Below are positions 12,365 to 22,401 of a stretch of DNA of 64,000 nt, one piece after another. The position numbers were made by a program, and so were the translations under genes. Each line of letters starts with the position of its first letter. Position 1 is the first letter of the stretch. This DNA is from Escherichia coli (GTDB lineage: Bacteria; Pseudomonadota; Gammaproteobacteria; Enterobacterales; Enterobacteriaceae), in assembly GCF_003334335.1 (NCBI RefSeq), contig NZ_QOWQ01000030.1, one strand, 5' to 3'. The notes under the pieces were generated by a model. The model was not told where the DNA came from, did no database searches, and saw only the letters and a program-made list of their open reading frames with translations.

Positions 12365-13222
12365 TTAGCCCTGAAAACGGGCGCTGTACTCTCCCGGCGT
12401 CAGACCAAACTGACGCCGGAAAACGCGACAAAAATAGTCGCTATCCGGAAAACCGCAACGCTGTGCCACTTCATGAATTGACAGATGATATTTCTGCAAA
12501 ATCATCCTCGCCTTCGCCATTCGCACCCAACGCACATACTCGATAAAACGCATCGTTCCATGCTGAGCAAACAGTTTTGACAGATGATTGGGCGTGATAT
12601 TAAAAAACTGCGCCACGCTCTCGCGGGTGAGCGGCTGGGCATAATTATCCTGAACCCAGTTACAAATGCTGTGATAGAGAAAATCGCCGCGCGGCTGCGA
12701 ATTGCCCGGCGGCATATTCACCACGCTACGGCAAAGATGCAGCAAACTTAACACCAGCGGCTGAATGATATTTTGCTCCAGCGGCGAACGGCTAAGATGG
12801 GTGAGGGCGGTAAGCATCGCTTCACCTTCACCGCGTTGCAGGCTGGGAAGCTGGATCTGGCGAGCAGGATGCAACAACGACGTGGTGCGGCTATCGTAAA
12901 ACGATAACCCAAGCCAGGTCGGAGCGAACACCAGGCTTAACAGCATCACCGGTTTGTTGTTGACCGGTAAATTAGCCGCGCGCGCCGGAATAAACAGCAT
13001 TTCTCCTTCCACCAAACGTTGCTGCTTTGCTTCCAGCAGATTGCCGTATTCGCCGCGCAGCACGATATCCAGACGGGGAAAATCAATACATAAACTGCCC
13101 ACCGGCAACGAGGCAGGCTGGCTGGCAAACCAGACGCGCCCCAGTAGTTGCGGGTTAAGCACCAGGCCGCTGAACAGATCGGCGAAAAATTGTTGATCGG
13201 CGGGCAAGCCTGGTGCTTTCAT
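12365..13222 (-). CDS. ypdC: AraC/XylS-family transcriptional regulator YpdC
   Basis: 285-aa ORF with a C-terminal AraC-type helix-turn-helix region (...HLSIHEVAQRCGFPDSDYFCRVFRRQFGLTPGEY). Confidence 0.85.
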   Translation of the reverse strand: MKAPGLPADQQFFADLFSGLVLNPQLLGRVWFASQPASLPVGSLCIDFPRLDIVLRGEYGNLLEAKQQRLVEGEMLFIPARAANLPVNNKPVMLLSLVFAPTWLGLSFYDSRTTSLLHPARQIQLPSLQRGEGEAMLTALTHLSRSPLEQNIIQPLVLSLLHLCRSVVNMPPGNSQPRGDFLYHSICNWVQDNYAQPLTRESVAQFFNITPNHLSKLFAQHGTMRFIEYVRWVRMAKARMILQKYHLSIHEVAQRCGFPDSDYFCRVFRRQFGLTPGEYSARFQG

Positions 13223-13234
13223 GAAAGTTCCCGA

Positions 13235-13969
13235 TTAAAGATGCATTAACTGGCGAAATTCTTTCACTTTGCTGCGGCTGACCGGCACTTCAAAATCCAG
13301 ATCTTTCAGTCGCAGAATGTAGGTGTTATTAAACCACGGTTCGATTTCGCGTATTTTGTTCAGATTGACACAAAATGAGCGATGGCAGCGGAAAAAATGC
13401 GACGGCGGCAGTTTGCTGCAAAATTCGGTAATGTTCATCGGCATTACGTAGGATTCACGCCGCGTATAGACAAAGGTCATTTTCTCGTGCGCTTCGGCGT
13501 AATAGATATCGTTAATTGGCGTGACGATTATTCGCTCATCTTTCACCAGATTAATGGTGTCATTCTCACGCGTTACCGTCGCGGCAGGCGTACTGCTGGT
13601 CTGCTGTTGTTGCCAGGCCGCTTCCAGTTTTTGCAGCATCCCGGTAATACGTGACTCCTGATACGGTTTGAGAATGTAGTCAAACGCCTCCAGTTCAAAC
13701 GCTTCTACCGCATGTTCTTTCCACGCGGTGATGAACACAATAAACGGTTTATGGGCGAACTGGCTGATGTTTTGCGCCAGCAACACGCCATCCAGCGACG
13801 GAATATTGATATCCAGAAAAATGGCGTCGACGCGGTTATGCTGCAAAAACTTCAACACGTCCAGACCGTCGTCAAAGGTGCCGACAATCTCCATCTGGCT
13901 GTGCTCTTTAATTAGCCAGCTCAGTTCCTGTTGTGCCAGGAATTCGTCTTCAACAATGATGACTTTCAC
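13235..13969 (-). CDS. ypdB: LytTR-family response regulator YpdB
   Basis: ORF track begins at a TTG at 13987; trimmed to the GTG at 13969 (cac on the + strand at 13967..13969), giving VKVIIVEDE... and 244 aa; receiver domain plus LytTR DNA-binding domain. Confidence 0.82.
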   Translation of the reverse strand: MKVIIVEDEFLAQQELSWLIKEHSQMEIVGTFDDGLDVLKFLQHNRVDAIFLDINIPSLDGVLLAQNISQFAHKPFIVFITAWKEHAVEAFELEAFDYILKPYQESRITGMLQKLEAAWQQQQTSSTPAATVTRENDTINLVKDERIIVTPINDIYYAEAHEKMTFVYTRRESYVMPMNITEFCSKLPPSHFFRCHRSFCVNLNKIREIEPWFNNTYILRLKDLDFEVPVSRSKVKEFRQLMHL

Positions 13970-13983
13970 AATATCACTCCGGC

Positions 13984-15681
13984 TCAAAGCAATAACGTAG
14001 CCTGTGAGGCGACTGGGGTGCGTTGGTTAGGAATGTAAAACGCAATTTCCGTCCCCGGCTCCAGGCGGCGGATATGCAGCCCCTCGCCATACAATAACTT
14101 CACGCGATGATGGACATTCAGCAGGCCAATTTTATTGCCCGGCATTTCATTCGCTTCGACCCGCTCAATCACCTTTGGATCGATGCCGTGCCCGGTATCT
14201 CGCACCGCAATGCGTACCCGATTTCCGCACTCTGCAACGCTGATGGTGACAACGCCTTTACCTTTGCAAGGCTGAATACCGTGGACAATGGCGTTCTCCA
14301 CCAACGGCTGGATCAGCAGGCTGGGAATGCAGCAATTCACCTCTTCATCAATATCATAGATAACCGTCAGCTTGTCACCAAAGCGGGCCTGCTCAATGGC
14401 AATATAGTCTTTAATTTGATACAGCTCTTTTTTGATATCGATTTGCTCATCGTCTTTTAATTCAATGTTATAGCGCAGATAACGCGACAGATTAAAGATC
14501 AACTGGCGAGCGGTATCCGGATTCAGACGGATTGACGATGAAATAGCGTTCAGAGCGTTAAACAGAAAATGGGGATTAATTTTGCTTTGCAGGGCGCGAA
14601 GCTCTGCCTTATTTGCCATTTCACGTAGCTGCTCGGCGCGTGAAACCTCCAGTTGCGTGGAGATGATTTGCGACAGACCGACCGCCATTTCCTGTAATGA
14701 CGAGGTGATCTGATGCGCGTGGCAGTAGTAAATTTTCAGCGTTCCGGTCACGACCCCTTTCTCCCACAATGGGATCACCAGCATGGAATGAATCTCTGGT
14801 GTGCGGTGGGCTTCATCATTGTTTTTAATGATGATTTTTCCGTAATTCATCGCCTGACGGGTAGTCGGGCTAATGAAGTCATCGCCATTCTGATAGTTAT
14901 GTTCACCCACGCCAACATAGGCCAGCACATGATCGGTATTAGTAATCGCCACCGCATCGGCGTGAATGTCATCGCGGATAATTTCGCAGACCTTGCGTAA
15001 TGACTCGCTATTGACATGGCGAAACAGCGGTAGCGTTTTGTTGGCGATATCCAGCGCCAGCTTGGCCTGCCGCGCGGCGCTGGCCTCTTTTTCGCCCTCA
15101 ACGCTTTGCACCAGAAGCACAATAAAGCCGATACAGACGCTACCGAGGATCATTGGAATGCCGATTTTAGAGACGATATCGATCCCCAACGCGGTAGTTG
15201 GTGCCCAGACAATTACCAGAATCATGGTCAACGTCTCACACAACATGCCGCCGAGAATACCGACGCGCCAGCGCTGTGCTTTGGGGATTTTCAGGTTGAT
15301 CCAGCCCGATATACAACCCGCCAGAATGCTGGTGATAAAGCAGGGGATCGCCGTCACGCCGCCGATATCAATTAAATACCGGTGAATACCCGCAATCACG
15401 CCGGTAATGATGCCTACCCACGGGCCAAACAGAATCCCGCCGGACATCACCGCGATAATACGTACGTTCACCAGCGAGCCTTCTACGGGAACGCCGGACC
15501 AGGTGCTGAACAGGGCGAACAGCGAGAAAATGGCGGTAACGGCGAGCAATTCTTTTGGGGAGTGCGCCGACTTGTGCAACAGTTCGCGAAACAGGCGGAT
15601 ACGGATGAGAAAGAACAGGCAGATAAGCATTAACGCTGCCCGATCGAAGACCGCCAGCAGCATGTTGAATATTTCGTGCAC
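13984..15681 (-). CDS. ypdA: Sensor histidine kinase YpdA (LytS-type 5TM sensor, GAF, HisKA/HATPase)
   Basis: 565-aa ORF with an N-terminal multi-pass membrane domain and C-terminal kinase motifs; the stop overlaps the ypdB 5' end. Confidence 0.88.
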
Positions 15682-16056
15682 GGGTGACTCTGAATAAGGA
15701 TTAAACCTCTATGATAGGTAACCTGAAGGCTGATGACCAGCAGGCCGTTTTTGAGGAAAAACCACAATTTTAAAAGGGGATTGATAGATAAATGGTGTAT
15801 TAGCAATGCATCTCTTGATAATGCACTTCTGGTTAGTAAATTTATTGAAATTATTATGTTAATAAAATGAGTGGTAATTTTCTTGTTAGCGCAGATAAAT
15901 TTCCTGTTTTTAAAGCAGAGTTCCTCATTTAACGTCATTAATAAAATGTTCTAAAACGCTGGACAGACAGAAATTAATCAGGCTATTTTCAAAACAGCCA
16001 CCATCGTGGCAGCGTCGCTCGGACGGTCCGGGCGCTAACGTTAATCTGAGGAAATT

Positions 16057-17295
16057 ATGGCTGACACTCGCCCTGAACGTCGCTTTACGCGCATTGATCG
16101 TCTCCCGCCCTACGTTTTTAACATCACCGCTGAACTGAAAATGGCTGCGCGTCGGCGCGGCGAAGATATTATCGATTTCAGCATGGGTAACCCGGACGGT
16201 GCGACTCCGCCGCATATCGTCGAAAAATTATGTACTGTGGCCCAGCGCCCGGACACGCATGGTTACTCCACTTCACGCGGCATTCCGCGGTTACGTCGCG
16301 CCATTTCCCGCTGGTATCAGGATCGCTACGACGTTGAAATCGACCCGGAATCAGAAGCCATCGTCACTATTGGTTCGAAAGAGGGCCTGGCGCATCTGAT
16401 GCTGGCGACGCTGGATCATGGTGACACGGTGCTGGTGCCGAATCCAAGTTACCCGATCCATATTTATGGCGCGGTGATTGCCGGGGCGCAGGTACGCTCA
16501 GTGCCGCTGGTGGAAGGTGTCGATTTCTTCAACGAACTGGAGCGAGCCATTCGTGAAAGTTATCCGAAACCGAAGATGATGATCCTCGGCTTCCCGTCAA
16601 ACCCAACCGCGCAATGCGTGGAACTGGAGTTCTTCGAAAAAGTAGTGGCGCTGGCGAAACGCTACGATGTGCTGGTGGTCCATGACCTGGCCTATGCCGA
16701 TATCGTCTACGATGGCTGGAAAGCGCCGTCAATTATGCAGGTACCGGGTGCACGCGATGTGGCAGTCGAGTTCTTTACGCTGTCGAAAAGCTACAACATG
16801 GCGGGCTGGCGTATCGGCTTTATGGTTGGCAACAAAACGCTGGTCAGCGCCCTGGCTCGTATTAAAAGCTATCACGATTACGGCACCTTTACGCCGTTGC
16901 AGGTGGCGGCGATTGCGGCGCTGGAGGGCGATCAACAGTGCGTGCGCGACATTGCCGAACAGTACAAACGCCGCCGTGATGTATTGGTTAAAGGGCTGCA
17001 TGAAGCGGGCTGGATGGTTGAAATGCCGAAGGCTTCGATGTATGTCTGGGCGAAAATCCCGGAACCATATGCGGCCATGGGATCGCTGGAATTTGCCAAG
17101 AAGCTCCTTAACGAAGCGAAGGTTTGTGTCTCGCCGGGGATTGGCTTTGGCGACTATGGTGATACGCATGTTCGCTTTGCACTGATTGAAAACCGCGACC
17201 GTATTCGTCAGGCCATCAGAGGGATTAAAGCGATGTTCCGTGCCGACGGTTTACTACCCGCCAGCAGCAAACATATTCACGAAAACGCGGAATAA
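16057..17295 (+). CDS. alaC: Glutamate-pyruvate aminotransferase AlaC (PLP-dependent class I aminotransferase)
   Basis: 412-aa ORF; aminotransferase fold with the PLP-lysine region ([14 protein letters not shown]). Confidence 0.9.
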
Positions 17296-17314
17296 ACACC
17301 GTCGTCAGAAATGC

Positions 17315-17345
17315 AAACAGGAGCCTGATGGCTCCTGTTTTTCAT
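17315..17345 (+). terminator. Rho-independent terminator after alaC
   Basis: aaacaggagcc-tgat-ggctcctgttt stem-loop followed by a T run. Confidence 0.7.
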
Positions 17346-17359
17346 TGCACAGTTTGCTT

Positions 17360-17431
17360 TTAGATCATCAGGGCAAAAGTACCGGCCCAAACGATGACCA
17401 TAAAAGAAATGCCCATAAAGAAATATTTCAC
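17360..17431 (-). CDS. ypdK: Small membrane protein YpdK (23 aa)
   Basis: GTG-initiated mini-ORF encoding VKYFFMGISFMVIVWAGTFALMI; codons checked by hand; convergent with and abutting the alaC terminator. Confidence 0.6.
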   Translation of the reverse strand: MKYFFMGISFMVIVWAGTFALMI

Positions 17432-17786
17432 TTTACATCTCTCCGCGTAATTACTGTTACGCCTGAATGACTTCATTACACCTGATACAGTGAGTTGACA
17501 CCGGGCAAAGCGACCTTAAAAGCCCTGTATTTTACCGTGGGCATCACCCCAGAATTCTGAGCTAAACTGCTCGAGACGGCGCTAATGTACGCCTAAAACT
17601 GAAACGAGACAAGAGGCATTTTCTTATTTACTTTTAGTAACTTACAAGTGTCTCATATCGGCGACAGTTTAATTTCTGACGGTAATAATTAGATATTCAG
17701 CGAAGGAAAAAACCTTAAGAAAAAAGCCATAAAAACCATGAGGTTATTATGGCCGATTTGAGGAGGGAAAGAGTAAGAGCAGTTTG

Positions 17787-18707
17787 TTAAATGTACAACG
17801 ACGATTCTCCCACCGGGCGCGTTTTAAAGCGACGGTGGATCCAGAGGTACTGCTCCGGTGCGCGCATGATCTCTTTCTCGATAATCTTGTTCATATAGGC
17901 AGCGGCTTGATTTTCATCTGTCGGGTAGCCTTCCATCTCTGGGGTGATGAACAAACGATATCCGCTGTAATCCGCTTTTCTTACCATCGTTACGGTCAAC
18001 ATGGCTGCGCCAGAGAGACGGGAGAGAACATAGGTGCCATTGGTTGTGGCGACATTTTCCACCGCAAAGAACGGCGCGAAGGAGCTGCCTTTACGACCAT
18101 AATCCTGATCGGGAGCAAACCATACCGCTTCACCTTTCTTCAGTGCACCGACAATGCCGCGCAGATTATTTCTGCCGATCATCGCTTTGTTAGAGCGCAT
18201 GCGCCCACGGGTCTGCACCCATTCCATCAGCTGATTATTATGTGGACGATAGGTAGCCATCATTGGTTGGCACAGTCCCATCACGCGGCCGCCCAGTTCC
18301 AGCGACATAAAATGGACGCCGACAACCATTACGCCGCGATTTTGCATTTGTGCGCGTTTAAGGTTATCCAACCCTTCAACATCAAACCATTTACGTACGC
18401 GACTGTCGGGCCAGAACCATGCCATGCCGGTTTCTACCAGCGCCATGCCGAGTGAACGAAAGTTTTCGGCAATCATCTTCTCGCGTTCTTCCGCAGAATG
18501 CTGCGGGAAACAAAGTTCCAGGTTTTTACGGGCGATAGATTCACGACGTTTCAGGAATGGTCGCGCCATTGCGCCAATACGCGTGCCGAGAAAGCAGAGA
18601 ACAGGATAAGGAAGCTGTACCCAAAGCCAGAGTACACCAAGCCCAAACCATGTGAGCCAGTAGCGAGGATGTAGAAACTCGCGGGAAAATTTGCATTGTG
18701 GAAACAT
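17787..18707 (-). CDS. lpxP: Lipid A palmitoleoyl-ACP acyltransferase LpxP (cold-induced LpxL paralogue)
   Basis: ORF 17787..18773 trimmed to the ATG at 18707 (MFPQCKFSREFLHPRYWLTWFGLG...), 306 aa; HtrB/LpxL-family lauroyl/palmitoleoyl acyltransferase. Confidence 0.88.
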   Translation of the reverse strand: MFPQCKFSREFLHPRYWLTWFGLGVLWLWVQLPYPVLCFLGTRIGAMARPFLKRRESIARKNLELCFPQHSAEEREKMIAENFRSLGMALVETGMAWFWPDSRVRKWFDVEGLDNLKRAQMQNRGVMVVGVHFMSLELGGRVMGLCQPMMATYRPHNNQLMEWVQTRGRMRSNKAMIGRNNLRGIVGALKKGEAVWFAPDQDYGRKGSSFAPFFAVENVATTNGTYVLSRLSGAAMLTVTMVRKADYSGYRLFITPEMEGYPTDENQAAAYMNKIIEKEIMRAPEQYLWIHRRFKTRPVGESSLYI

Positions 18708-19059
18708 AGTTACCTTCTGTAGATACGAATTGTTGTATCGCAGAAGATTCCATGTCGACAGCGGTACACTCAATTGGTTGGGCCATCATGTACGACAATG
18801 GTTCCTGTAAAGAGTGTAAAGACTAGTCAGGACATAACCACGAGGAGCATGAAGGCGGTATCTGTACTTTATCACTCGCTGACTGCTTTCAGCTACTGAT
18901 TATTAATCGTGCAAAGTAAATATTTTTCCGTACACAACAGTCTTGCATTTAACATGCTGTTTTCATTGATGCTTAGCAAAAATTGCCAGAGGTTAAGGAT
19001 TGTCTTACTATTAAAGTGACTGAAGTTACAGGTTTTTTAGCGCGGCAGGAGGTTGAGCT

Positions 19060-19302
19060 ATGATTAATTTATGGATGTTTCTCGCCCTGTGTATTGTCTG
19101 CGTAAGCGGCTACATCGGTCAGGTACTGAACGTGGTATCGGCGGTCTCTTCTTTCTTCGGCATGGTGATCCTCGCTGCACTCATTTATTACTTCACCATG
19201 TGGTTAACTGGCGGTAATGAACTAGTGACGGGGATATTTATGTTTCTTGCCCCGGCTTGTGGCTTGATGATTCGCTTTATGGTGGGGTATGGCAGGCGGT
19301 AG
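19060..19302 (+). CDS. yfdY: Small inner-membrane protein YfdY
   Basis: 80-aa ORF with two predicted transmembrane helices. Confidence 0.7.
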   Translation: MINLWMFLALCIVCVSGYIGQVLNVVSAVSSFFGMVILAALIYYFTMWLTGGNELVTGIFMFLAPACGLMIRFMVGYGRR

Positions 19303-19378
19303 TGGGTCAGGATGGCTCATTTGGGCAGGTGTTCACATCAGCATCAGACATGATTGTTCACCTGCCATGTGAAAGACG

Positions 19379-19654
19379 CTATCGCACAGGATGAATAAGA
19401 TAATTCGCCTTTGTCGGAAAAGGGGGCGGCATTTCTTCTGTGAGGTTTAATGGTGGCGCATCTTCTCTCATCTTAAACAAAATCGCCTGTGATGGCTGAA
19501 GTTTTGTAGAGTGTGTGGTCGTCATCGCTGATGTTTTTTCAGTCTCTTTATAGCTCCTCTCACTTCCACCACCCGAAATGGAAAATGCAAAAACATTGCA
19601 TGCCATAATAGAGACCAATAAAAATAAGCTGAAAAGTATTAAGTTTACTTTCAT
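19379..19654 (-). CDS. ypdI: Small putative lipoprotein YpdI
   Basis: 91-aa ORF; signal peptide with a lipobox-like cysteine (LVSIMAC). Confidence 0.7.
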   Translation of the reverse strand: MKVNLILFSLFLLVSIMACNVFAFSISGGGSERSYKETEKTSAMTTTHSTKLQPSQAILFKMREDAPPLNLTEEMPPPFPTKANYLIHPVR

Positions 19655-19796
19655 AGAAAGTTATCCTGAAAATGGTTCACTGAGAACCTACGATGTTATG
19701 GCTGTATTTACATTTAATTAATCAGTATTTACATCGATATAATAAATGACATCTCTTTGTGGTATATAAGAATAGTTCTCTGCGACAGGAAGCATA

Positions 19797-19814
19797 TTCC
19801 TACAATTGTAAGAC
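19797..19814. promoter_or_regulatory. EvgA-box-like inverted repeat upstream of yfdX
   Basis: ttcctaca-at-tgtaagac matches the recalled EvgA consensus TTCYTACA-N2-TGTARGAA at 17 of 18 positions; about 135 bp upstream of yfdX. Confidence 0.55.
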
Positions 19815-19949
19815 TAAAATACTTCTTGCGATAATAACTACAACTGTAAGATAACCCTTTCAAAATGACCGTTGCTCTCTGATTTCTCATTTCATGCTCA
19901 CCCAATATGATGGCGGCGTTTTCTAAAACTGTTAAAGAATGAGGTAAGT

Positions 19950-20585
19950 ATGAAACGTTTAATTATGGCCACGATGGTCACAGCAATTCTGGCATCTTCA
20001 ACTGTATGGGCTGCTGATAATGCTCCGGTAGCGGCACAACAGCAAACTCAGCAAGTTCAGCAAACCCAGAAAACGGCAGCGGCAGCAGAGCGTATCTCTG
20101 AACAAGGTTTATATGCGATGCGTGACGTGCAGGTAGCGCGCCTGGCTCTGTTTCATGGCGATCCAGAAAAGGCAAAAGAACTGACCAATGAAGCTTCCGC
20201 TTTGCTGTCAGATGACAGTACCGAATGGGCAAAGTTCGCTAAGCCAGGTAAAAAGACCAATCTCAATGATGACCAATATATTGTCATTAATGCATCTGTC
20301 GGAATTTCTGAGAGTTATGTAGCAACTCCCGAAAAAGAAGCCGCGATAAAAATTGCCAATGAAAAAATGGCGAAAGGGGATAAAAAGGGCGCAATGGAAG
20401 AGCTTCGCCTGGCCGGTGTTGGCGTAATGGAAAACCAATATCTGATGCCACTTAAACAGACTCGTAATGCACTTGCTGATGCGCAGAAACTGCTTGATAA
20501 AAAGCAATACTACGAGGCAAACCTGGCGCTTAAAGGTGCGGAAGATGGAATCATCGTCGATAGCGAAGCACTGTTTGTGAACTAA
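19950..20585 (+). CDS. yfdX: Periplasmic YfdX-family protein
   Basis: 211-aa ORF with a signal peptide ([21 protein letters not shown]) and a Gln/Ala/Lys-rich helical body. Confidence 0.85.
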
Positions 20586-20828
20586 TGCTGACAGGCAGTA
20601 TATTGAGGTAAAGGATTTAACTCCCTCCAGCCGACAATTTTTTATGACCACAATACGACAGGTTGTGGTCATAAAATTATTTGGCGCTCGCGGTGCTATA
20701 AACTCGCATTTTATATTCCTCAAAGTAAACCGCAATAATCCCGTGTCATCACAAATCATTTATTATGTTATGTTTTATGGTACGCTTTAAAAAGCGTAAT
20801 CATACCCTTGCTTGTAAATCACCGGCGC

Positions 20829-20846
20829 TTCTTACAGTTGTAAGAA
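20829..20846. promoter_or_regulatory. Perfect EvgA-box palindrome upstream of frc
   Basis: ttcttaca-gt-tgtaagaa: both 8-bp arms are exact reverse complements and match the recalled consensus 18 of 18; 250 bp upstream of the frc ATG. Confidence 0.6.
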
Positions 20847-21097
20847 TAACATCACAAATGTCGCGACTCTCTCTGATTACCACGAATCAATATTTATCAT
20901 ATTCTTCTTTTCGTCCTCACTACTTACCATGCAGAAAGGAATTGGAAGTGGCGATGAAATGATTTTCAGCACTTGATACAGGATTTTAAAAATATCGAGT
21001 GCAGCTACGACGATATTTTGCGGGTTATTTATAGAAGATATTACGCCTTAAATAAACGCTAAATTAACACATATTTAATTAACTAATAGGTATTGCT

Positions 21098-22348
21098 ATG
21101 TCAACTCCACTTCAAGGAATTAAAGTTCTCGATTTCACCGGTGTGCAATCTGGCCCATCTTGTACTCAAATGCTGGCCTGGTTTGGCGCTGACGTTATTA
21201 AAATTGAACGTCCCGGCGTTGGTGACGTAACGCGTCACCAGCTGCGAGATATTCCTGATATCGATGCGCTTTACTTCACCATGCTTAACAGTAACAAACG
21301 TTCTATTGAGTTAAATACCAAAACAGCGGAAGGCAAAGAGGTAATGGAAAAGCTGATCCGCGAAGCTGATATCTTAGTCGAGAACTTTCATCCAGGGGCC
21401 ATTGATCACATGGGCTTCACCTGGGAGCATATTCAAGAAATCAATCCACGTCTGATTTTTGGTTCGATCAAAGGGTTTGATGAGTGTTCGCCTTATGTGA
21501 ATGTAAAAGCCTATGAAAACGTTGCTCAGGCAGCGGGTGGCGCGGCATCCACTACGGGTTTTTGGGATGGTCCGCCGCTGGTAAGCGCTGCAGCGTTGGG
21601 TGACAGCAACACCGGAATGCATTTGCTGATCGGTTTACTTGCTGCTTTGCTGCATCGCGAAAAAACGGGGCGTGGGCAACGAGTCACCATGTCAATGCAG
21701 GATGCCGTATTGAACCTTTGCCGCGTGAAATTACGTGACCAGCAGCGTCTCGATAAATTGGGTTATCTGGAAGAATACCCGCAGTATCCGAATGGTACAT
21801 TTGGTGATGCAGTTCCCCGCGGTGGTAATGCAGGTGGTGGCGGTCAGCCTGGCTGGATCCTGAAATGTAAAGGCTGGGAAACCGATCCTAACGCCTATAT
21901 TTATTTCACTATTCAGGAGCAAAACTGGGAAAACACCTGTAAAGCCATCGGCAAACCAGAATGGATTACCGATCCGGCATACAGTACAGCCCATGCACGA
22001 CAGCCACATATTTTCGATATTTTTGCTGAAATCGAAAAATACACTGTCACTATTGATAAACATGAAGCGGTGGCCTATTTGACTCAGTTTGATATTCCTT
22101 GTGCACCGGTTTTAAGTATGAAAGAAATTTCACTTGATCCCTCTTTGCGCCAAAGTGGCAGTGTTGTTGAAGTGGAACAACCGTTGCGTGGAAAATATCT
22201 GACCGTTGGTTGTCCAATGAAATTCTCTGCCTTTACGCCGGATATTAAAGCTGCGCCGCTATTAGGTGAACATACCGCTGCTGTATTGCAGGAGCTGGGT
22301 TATAGCGACGATGAAATTGCTGCAATGAAGCAAAACCACGCCATCTGA
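21098..22348 (+). CDS. frc: Formyl-CoA:oxalate CoA-transferase (family III CoA-transferase)
   Basis: 416-aa ORF; N-terminus [40 protein letters not shown] is typical of CaiB/BaiF family III CoA-transferases. Confidence 0.9.
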
Positions 22349-22401
22349 TATTAACGGGGGCTTCTGGCTCCCAATTTATAAAAATTTCGAGGTTATTAAT
22401 C

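Follow-up and report, generated by a model that had tools for sequence, protein, structure and literature searches.

A probable EvgA operator between yfdX and frc in Escherichia coli K-12

The genes frc, oxc and yfdV of Escherichia coli K-12 lie 3' of yfdX, and the locus raises the question of whether they have an EvgA-dependent promoter of their own or rely on read-through from yfdX. The window considered here, which is the whole stretch of DNA analysed (64 kb), is E. coli K-12, and its positions 19303..21097 are base-for-base the reverse complement of MG1655 (NC_000913.3). An inverted repeat between yfdX and frc had been predicted from the sequence to be a site for EvgA that would give frc-oxc-yfdV a promoter separate from that of yfdX. 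The genes that matter for this prediction are arranged in the order yfdX, frc, oxc, yfdV, yfdE, evgS, evgA, emrK:

19950..20585, plus strand, yfdX
21098..22348, plus strand, frc, formyl-CoA transferase, EvgA-regulated
22402..24096, plus strand, oxc, oxalyl-CoA decarboxylase, EvgA-regulated
24166..25110, plus strand, yfdV, EvgA-regulated
25145..26329, plus strand, yfdE, EvgA-regulated
26385..29978, minus strand, evgS, sensor kinase
29983..30597, minus strand, evgA, response regulator predicted to read the box

The block from yfdX to emrKY (about 19000..34000) has a GC content of 38-47%, versus 46-56% in its flanks, as would suit an island that was acquired horizontally and is targeted by H-NS.

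Control of these genes by EvgA has been described before. In Mullins 2013 (PMC3720670), the legend of Fig. 2, citing Masuda & Church 2003, shows inverted repeats bound by EvgA ahead of yfdX and ahead of yfdWUVE, and a section of a 2021 review places frc among the promoters strongly bound by EvgA (PMC8147483). That the induction of frc, oxc, yfdV and yfdE depends on EvgA/EvgS has been reported in papers that include PMC3720670, PMC4283999 and PMC4759549. Johnson et al. 2014 noted an EvgA site in all directly regulated genes (PMC4283999), and emrKY is directly bound by EvgA (PMC8174306). The repeat discussed below, at 20829..20846, is almost certainly the already published EvgA site that activates frc-oxc-yfdV-yfdE.

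The repeat ahead of frc and its sister boxes

The candidate EvgA box of the frc promoter (20829..20846, no strand assigned) reads TTCTTACAGTTGTAAGAA and is composed of two 8-bp inverted arms around a 2-bp spacer, TTCTTACA-GT-TGTAAGAA. It had been called a perfect 18-bp palindrome. This holds for the arms, which are perfectly complementary, but not for the central GT, which is not self-complementary (its reverse complement is AC), so that 16 of the 18 positions are palindromic. Its placement was given correctly, about 250 bp before frc in a 512-bp gap: the gap between the end of yfdX (20585) and the start of frc (21098) measures 512 bp, and 251 bp separate the end of the box from the frc ATG.

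We take TTCYTACA-N2-TGTARGAA to be the EvgA consensus, a motif whose backing here comes only from its occurrence at published EvgA targets. A literature search with the consensus as a string returned unrelated papers only, and a search for genome-wide EvgA binding data returned nothing useful. Scanned with this motif, the 64-kb window contains a single exact match, the box at 20829..20846. With up to one mismatch there are two matches (20829 and 19797) against 0.01 expected, and none of 100 shuffles gave two. With up to three mismatches there are four (19797, 19835, 20829 and 30822) against 0.61 expected, all of them within three intergenic regions of the evgAS island. Bare perfect 8-2-8 inverted repeats, by comparison, number three in the window against about one expected. 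The frc box is thus unremarkable as a generic inverted repeat, and far beyond chance as a match to the consensus.

The other matches in the window, none with an assigned strand, are the following:

19797..19814, upstream yfdX box, TTCCTACAATTGTAAGAC, one mismatch, arms complementary at 6/8 positions
19835..19852, weaker second yfdX box, TAACTACAACTGTAAGAT, three mismatches, 38 bp 3' of the box at 19797
30822..30839, box between the divergent genes evgA and emrK, ATCCTACAGGCGTAAGAA, two mismatches

The first of these is the second box that the original prediction had placed upstream of yfdX, and it is present there. In MG1655, boxes also lie upstream of safA-ydeO (TGCCTACAGCTGTAAGAA, one mismatch), ydeP (AGCCTACACCTGTAAGAA, two mismatches) and yegR (TTCCTACTTATGTAGGAA, one mismatch), operons that have been named as direct targets of EvgA (PMC8174306, PMC8147483). 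The frc box also stands out in a scan that makes no use of the consensus, in which all 18-mers of the gap between yfdX and frc were set against the DNA upstream of yfdX, emrK/evgA, safA, ydeP and yegR. The best-shared 18-mer is the box at 20829, with a summed Hamming distance of 19 (median 35; next distinct region 26).

Among the seven sites only the frc box is without a mismatch. This agrees with Johnson et al. 2014 (PMC4283999), in whose evgS-constitutive mutants frc and oxc belong to the genes with the strongest induction. Across six EvgA promoters (sites at 20829, 19835 and 30822 of the window, at 6072 and 8731 of locus L082 and at 6414 of locus L083), the promoter-proximal arm TGTARGAA is nearly invariant (7-8/8), and the distal arm is degenerate (6-7/8) except at frc, where both arms are perfect. 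Upstream of gadE, which a review lists among the EvgA-bound promoters, no box with up to three mismatches was found in MG1655 3653000..3663000 (locus L084). The sole match in that segment (TTCTTACGCATGAAAGAA, two mismatches, L084 6887..6904) lies inside mdtE.

Conservation of the gap and co-occurrence with evgAS

At least 5240 of 5426 complete E. coli genomes have an exact copy of the box, a figure that, with a background divergence of 1-5%, strengthens the case only modestly. More distant comparisons came from a genome scan with Frc, which returned at least 80 loci, mostly with distant frc genes, in a sample that contains no other Escherichia and no Shigella species. Among the loci listed, two relatives carry evgAS in an arrangement like that of the window. 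One (L003) is an E. coli that has diverged to 91% nucleotide identity. The other (L002) is a genome labelled Yersinia vastinensis, in which the island has about 79% nucleotide identity, EvgA 94% and EvgS 82% amino-acid identity.

In L003 the frc box is TTCTTACAGCTGTAAGAA, with both arms kept and the spacer alone changed, and in L002 it is TTCTTACACGCGTAAGAA, with 15 of 16 arm positions conserved. The upstream yfdX box (19797) is also kept in L003, and the evgA/emrK box is an exact consensus match in L003 and has one mismatch in L002. Between K-12 and L002, identity varies strongly along the gap:

yfdX terminator hairpin, 89%
about 150 bp from the hairpin to the box, 43%
box, 83%
35 bp 3' of the box, 91%
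frc leader, 52%

Homology between K-12 and L002, as detected by blastn, restarts exactly at 20829, and this comparative footprint places the start of the functional promoter region exactly at that position. Moellerella (L004) and Providencia (L005) have frc-oxc-yfdV and lack yfdX, evgAS and the box. Nor, among the loci listed, did the other 77 frc loci contain a site within one mismatch of the consensus; the figure given for the 79 frc loci from other species (about 1.5 Mb) is likewise zero. As far as the aligned sequences of two evgAS-bearing relatives indicate, the box thus appears to co-occur with evgAS and to be conserved above background.

Two further observations concern these regions. 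The L002 sequence (positions 1..21248; Yersinia vastinensis IP38594, NZ_CACVAF010000001.1) holds the whole yfdX-frc-oxc-yfdV-yfdE-evgSA-emrK island, and its homology to the window begins just past arsB-arsC, 4 bp ahead of the EvgA box of yfdX. This points to horizontal movement of the island together with its operators, or else to an assembly that is contaminated or wrongly labelled. A further perfect 8-2-8 palindrome, TACGCTTTAAAAAGCGTA, is found at 20781..20798, 48 bp 5' of the frc box. As RNA it folds well (dG -10.7, z -5.7), but it is kept in neither L003 nor L002; we rejected it as a part of the system, and it is probably incidental.

Transcription units and promoter geometry

The features that bear on a separate frc promoter are these:

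20640..20676, plus strand, intrinsic-terminator-like hairpin after yfdX, with a 15-bp stem, a 7-nt loop and the T-rich tail TTATTTGG
20847..20881, plus strand, 35-bp conserved block after the box, TAACATCACAAATGTCGCGACTCTCTCTGATTACC
20896..20901, plus strand, candidate -10 hexamer TATCAT, weak, at the spacing common to EvgA promoters
20899..20904, plus strand, candidate -10 hexamer CATATT, weak, at the same common spacing

The hairpin lies 55 bp past the yfdX stop codon and has a dG of -18.7 kcal/mol (z -4.7); neither L002 nor L003 shows any change in the stem. Judged by its sequence, it has the make-up of an intrinsic terminator that would end the yfdX unit. With a terminator-like hairpin of this strength behind it, yfdX looks like a transcription unit of its own, in keeping with a promoter that serves frc separately. 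Induction has been reported to be unequal between yfdX and yfdWUVE (PMC4759549). Two published views count against a separate, box-driven unit. Several papers name the cluster as a single yfdXWUVE operon, and Shimada 2014 (PMC3946193) predicted a constitutive RpoD promoter, TTTATA-18-AATAAT, at 20710..20739, which would put the box inside a transcript. The hexamers of that promoter are about 100 bp 5' of the frc box, in a stretch that is not conserved in L002.

On balance, the claim that frc-oxc-yfdV has its own EvgA-dependent promoter appears well supported by the non-random exact motif and its recurrence at five other EvgA targets, by the footprint in a diverged relative, by the absence of the box where evgAS is absent, and by the conserved yfdX terminator. 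The same conclusion is stated in passages of PMC3720670 and PMC8147483. As a separate observation, several E. coli strains match K-12 at 100% in this region apart from an inserted IS1 at about 20684..20693 (1395..2161 in locus L085). The element sits between the yfdX terminator and the box, and the box, the frc leader and the downstream sequence are intact.

In a generic promoter scan nothing 3' of the box qualified as a good sigma-70 promoter, so that the candidate -10 is a matter of weak hexamers; an activator-dependent promoter would be expected to escape such a scan. In the promoters of frc, yfdX (box 2), safA, emrK, ydeP and yegR, -10-like hexamers begin 57-63 bp 3' of the centre of the box. 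From this spacing we infer that frc transcription may start near 20908..20911, with the box centred near -72 in a class-I-like arrangement and a leader of about 190 nt. Judged by the spacing to a -10-like TATGAT (19906..19911), it is the yfdX box at 19835, not that at 19797, that corresponds in position to the frc box. The predicted frc leader also contains a minimal open reading frame, ATG-AAA-TGA (20954..20962), 5 nt 3' of a GGAAG. It is probably meaningless, because the reading frame is not kept in L003 or L002.

The 35-bp block at 20847..20881 is conserved above the box itself in the comparison with L002, and far above its flanks. It has a counterpart at yfdX: CTCTCTGATT follows the frc box and yfdX box 2 alike, in each case 22 nt past the end of the box (20847..20881 versus 19853..19884), and the safA, ydeP, yegR and emrK promoters have A[GA]TCYT at about +24. 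No extra EvgA half-site (at least 6/8) recurs 3' of the box in the six promoters, so the conservation of the block is not explained by such a half-site. Most probably the block covers the -35 region and is simply the stretch that links the activator site to the -10. That it is a second, undescribed cis-element of EvgA promoters, either a non-canonical determinant of the -35 region used by EvgA-bound polymerase or the site of a second factor, seems to us doubtful. It may also be mere spacer DNA or the trace of a promoter duplication.

How the site may work

We consider it very likely that the repeat is a high-affinity operator for a dimer of phosphorylated EvgA, about 72 bp 5' of a weak sigma-70 promoter of frc, in a unit separate from yfdX. 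The sequence, its non-randomness, recurrence, conservation and co-occurrence with evgAS come from the present analysis; EvgA binding and induction are taken from the literature. In this scheme, at mildly acidic pH EvgS would phosphorylate EvgA, a response regulator of the NarL/FixJ family encoded 9 kb downstream. The EvgA dimer would bind the two 8-bp arms and switch on frc-oxc-yfdV-yfdE from a promoter with its candidate -10 at 20896..20904. The yfdX gene would be served by its own boxes and closed off by its intrinsic terminator. Relief of H-NS silencing may contribute to frc activation, since H-NS binding has been reported in the spacer and the island is low in GC; like the promoter position and the class-I-like geometry, this part of the scheme is proposed only conditionally.

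It could also be that EvgA binds the box and acts mainly by displacing H-NS, rather than by class-I recruitment of polymerase. We regard this as plausible, if on the unlikely side. H-NS binding and an RpoD holoenzyme SELEX peak were reported in the frc-yfdX spacer (Shimada 2014, PMC3946193), the GC content of the island is 38-47%, and the different context in L002, beside arsBC, is consistent with horizontal acquisition. However, the constant spacing from box to -10-like hexamer in six promoters, like the tight conservation of the 35 bp that follow the frc box, fits a fixed geometry of activator and polymerase better. The two modes of action are compatible and not exclusive. Reading of the site by another NarL/FixJ regulator, such as RcsB, alone or with GadE, instead of or besides EvgA, is improbable. 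There is a loose likeness to RcsB-type sites in the right arm taken with its flank, TAAGAATAACATCA, and RcsB controls yfdX in Klebsiella (PMC6394985). Yet the RcsB consensus KMRGAWTMWYCTGS (PMC6394985) has no match at the frc box with up to two mismatches, and its 59 matches in the window barely exceed the 43 expected; we therefore rejected an RcsB site here. The box, moreover, is found together with evgAS, and the frc loci without evgAS lack it.

Two readings do without any regulator at the DNA. In yfdX read-through transcripts the repeat could work as an RNA hairpin, in attenuation, processing or stability, since a 7-bp stem with a 4-nt loop can form. We rejected this very improbable reading given the weak fold (dG -6.0, z -1.6; 12 of 200 shuffles were as good) and the lack of an Rfam match. 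There is also no T-run 3' of the repeat, a strong terminator lies 150 bp upstream, and L002 alters the first base of the right arm and both spacer bases with no compensating change in the left arm. The last reading, a chance palindrome without function, can draw on the fact that perfect 8-2-8 repeats arise about once per 64 kb and that another lies 48 bp upstream, but we give it almost no credence. The box matches a 16-position consensus exactly, where 0.01 matches would be expected even with one mismatch allowed; the motif recurs at five other EvgA targets; and the box is conserved where its flanks diverge.

An EvgA operator ahead of frc would resemble several known sites. NarL '7-2-7' sites consist of inverted half-sites 2 bp apart, bound by a dimer of the NarL/FixJ-type helix-turn-helix domain. 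The EvgA box shares the inverted half-sites and the 2-bp spacing, but differs in half-site sequence, in having arms of 8 bp rather than 7 bp, and in its signal, which is acid through EvgS rather than nitrate. At vir-activated promoters of Bordetella, the homologous NarL/FixJ-family regulator BvgA binds an inverted repeat well 5' of a weak promoter, and several dimers spread cooperatively to the -35 region. The frc site is similar in combining a NarL/FixJ regulator with an inverted repeat far 5' of a weak promoter; EvgA promoters differ in that no extra half-site recurs 3' of the box, and a BvgA-like array of half-sites was rejected. BvgAS has been named as a homologue of EvgAS (PMC8174306).

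The closest likeness is to the rest of the EvgA regulon, whose boxes (emrK/evgA, ydeP, safA-ydeO, yegR and yfdX) are attributed, in the citing passages of other papers, to Kato 2000, Masuda & Church 2003 and Itou 2009. Like the frc box, these are 18-bp sites of the form TTCYTACA-N2-TGTARGAA, 110-260 bp before the ATG, with -10-like hexamers at the same distance from the centre. The frc box, which lies in the same low-GC island as evgAS, differs from them in having no mismatch; it and the ydeP box are the farthest from their start codons, at about 260 bp.

The prediction made from the sequence was right, and it is a correct rediscovery of a published operator that is already known. The link between frc and EvgA was established about twenty years ago and has been repeated in later papers, so no new biology is claimed for it. 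Of use here are the confirmation of that call, the observation that no other site of the regulon matches the consensus as well as the frc site, and the comparative footprint that begins at 20829. From the perspective of acid tolerance, we suggest that the site explains how the enzymes of oxalate-dependent acid tolerance would be coupled to the EvgS/EvgA acid sensor independently of yfdX.
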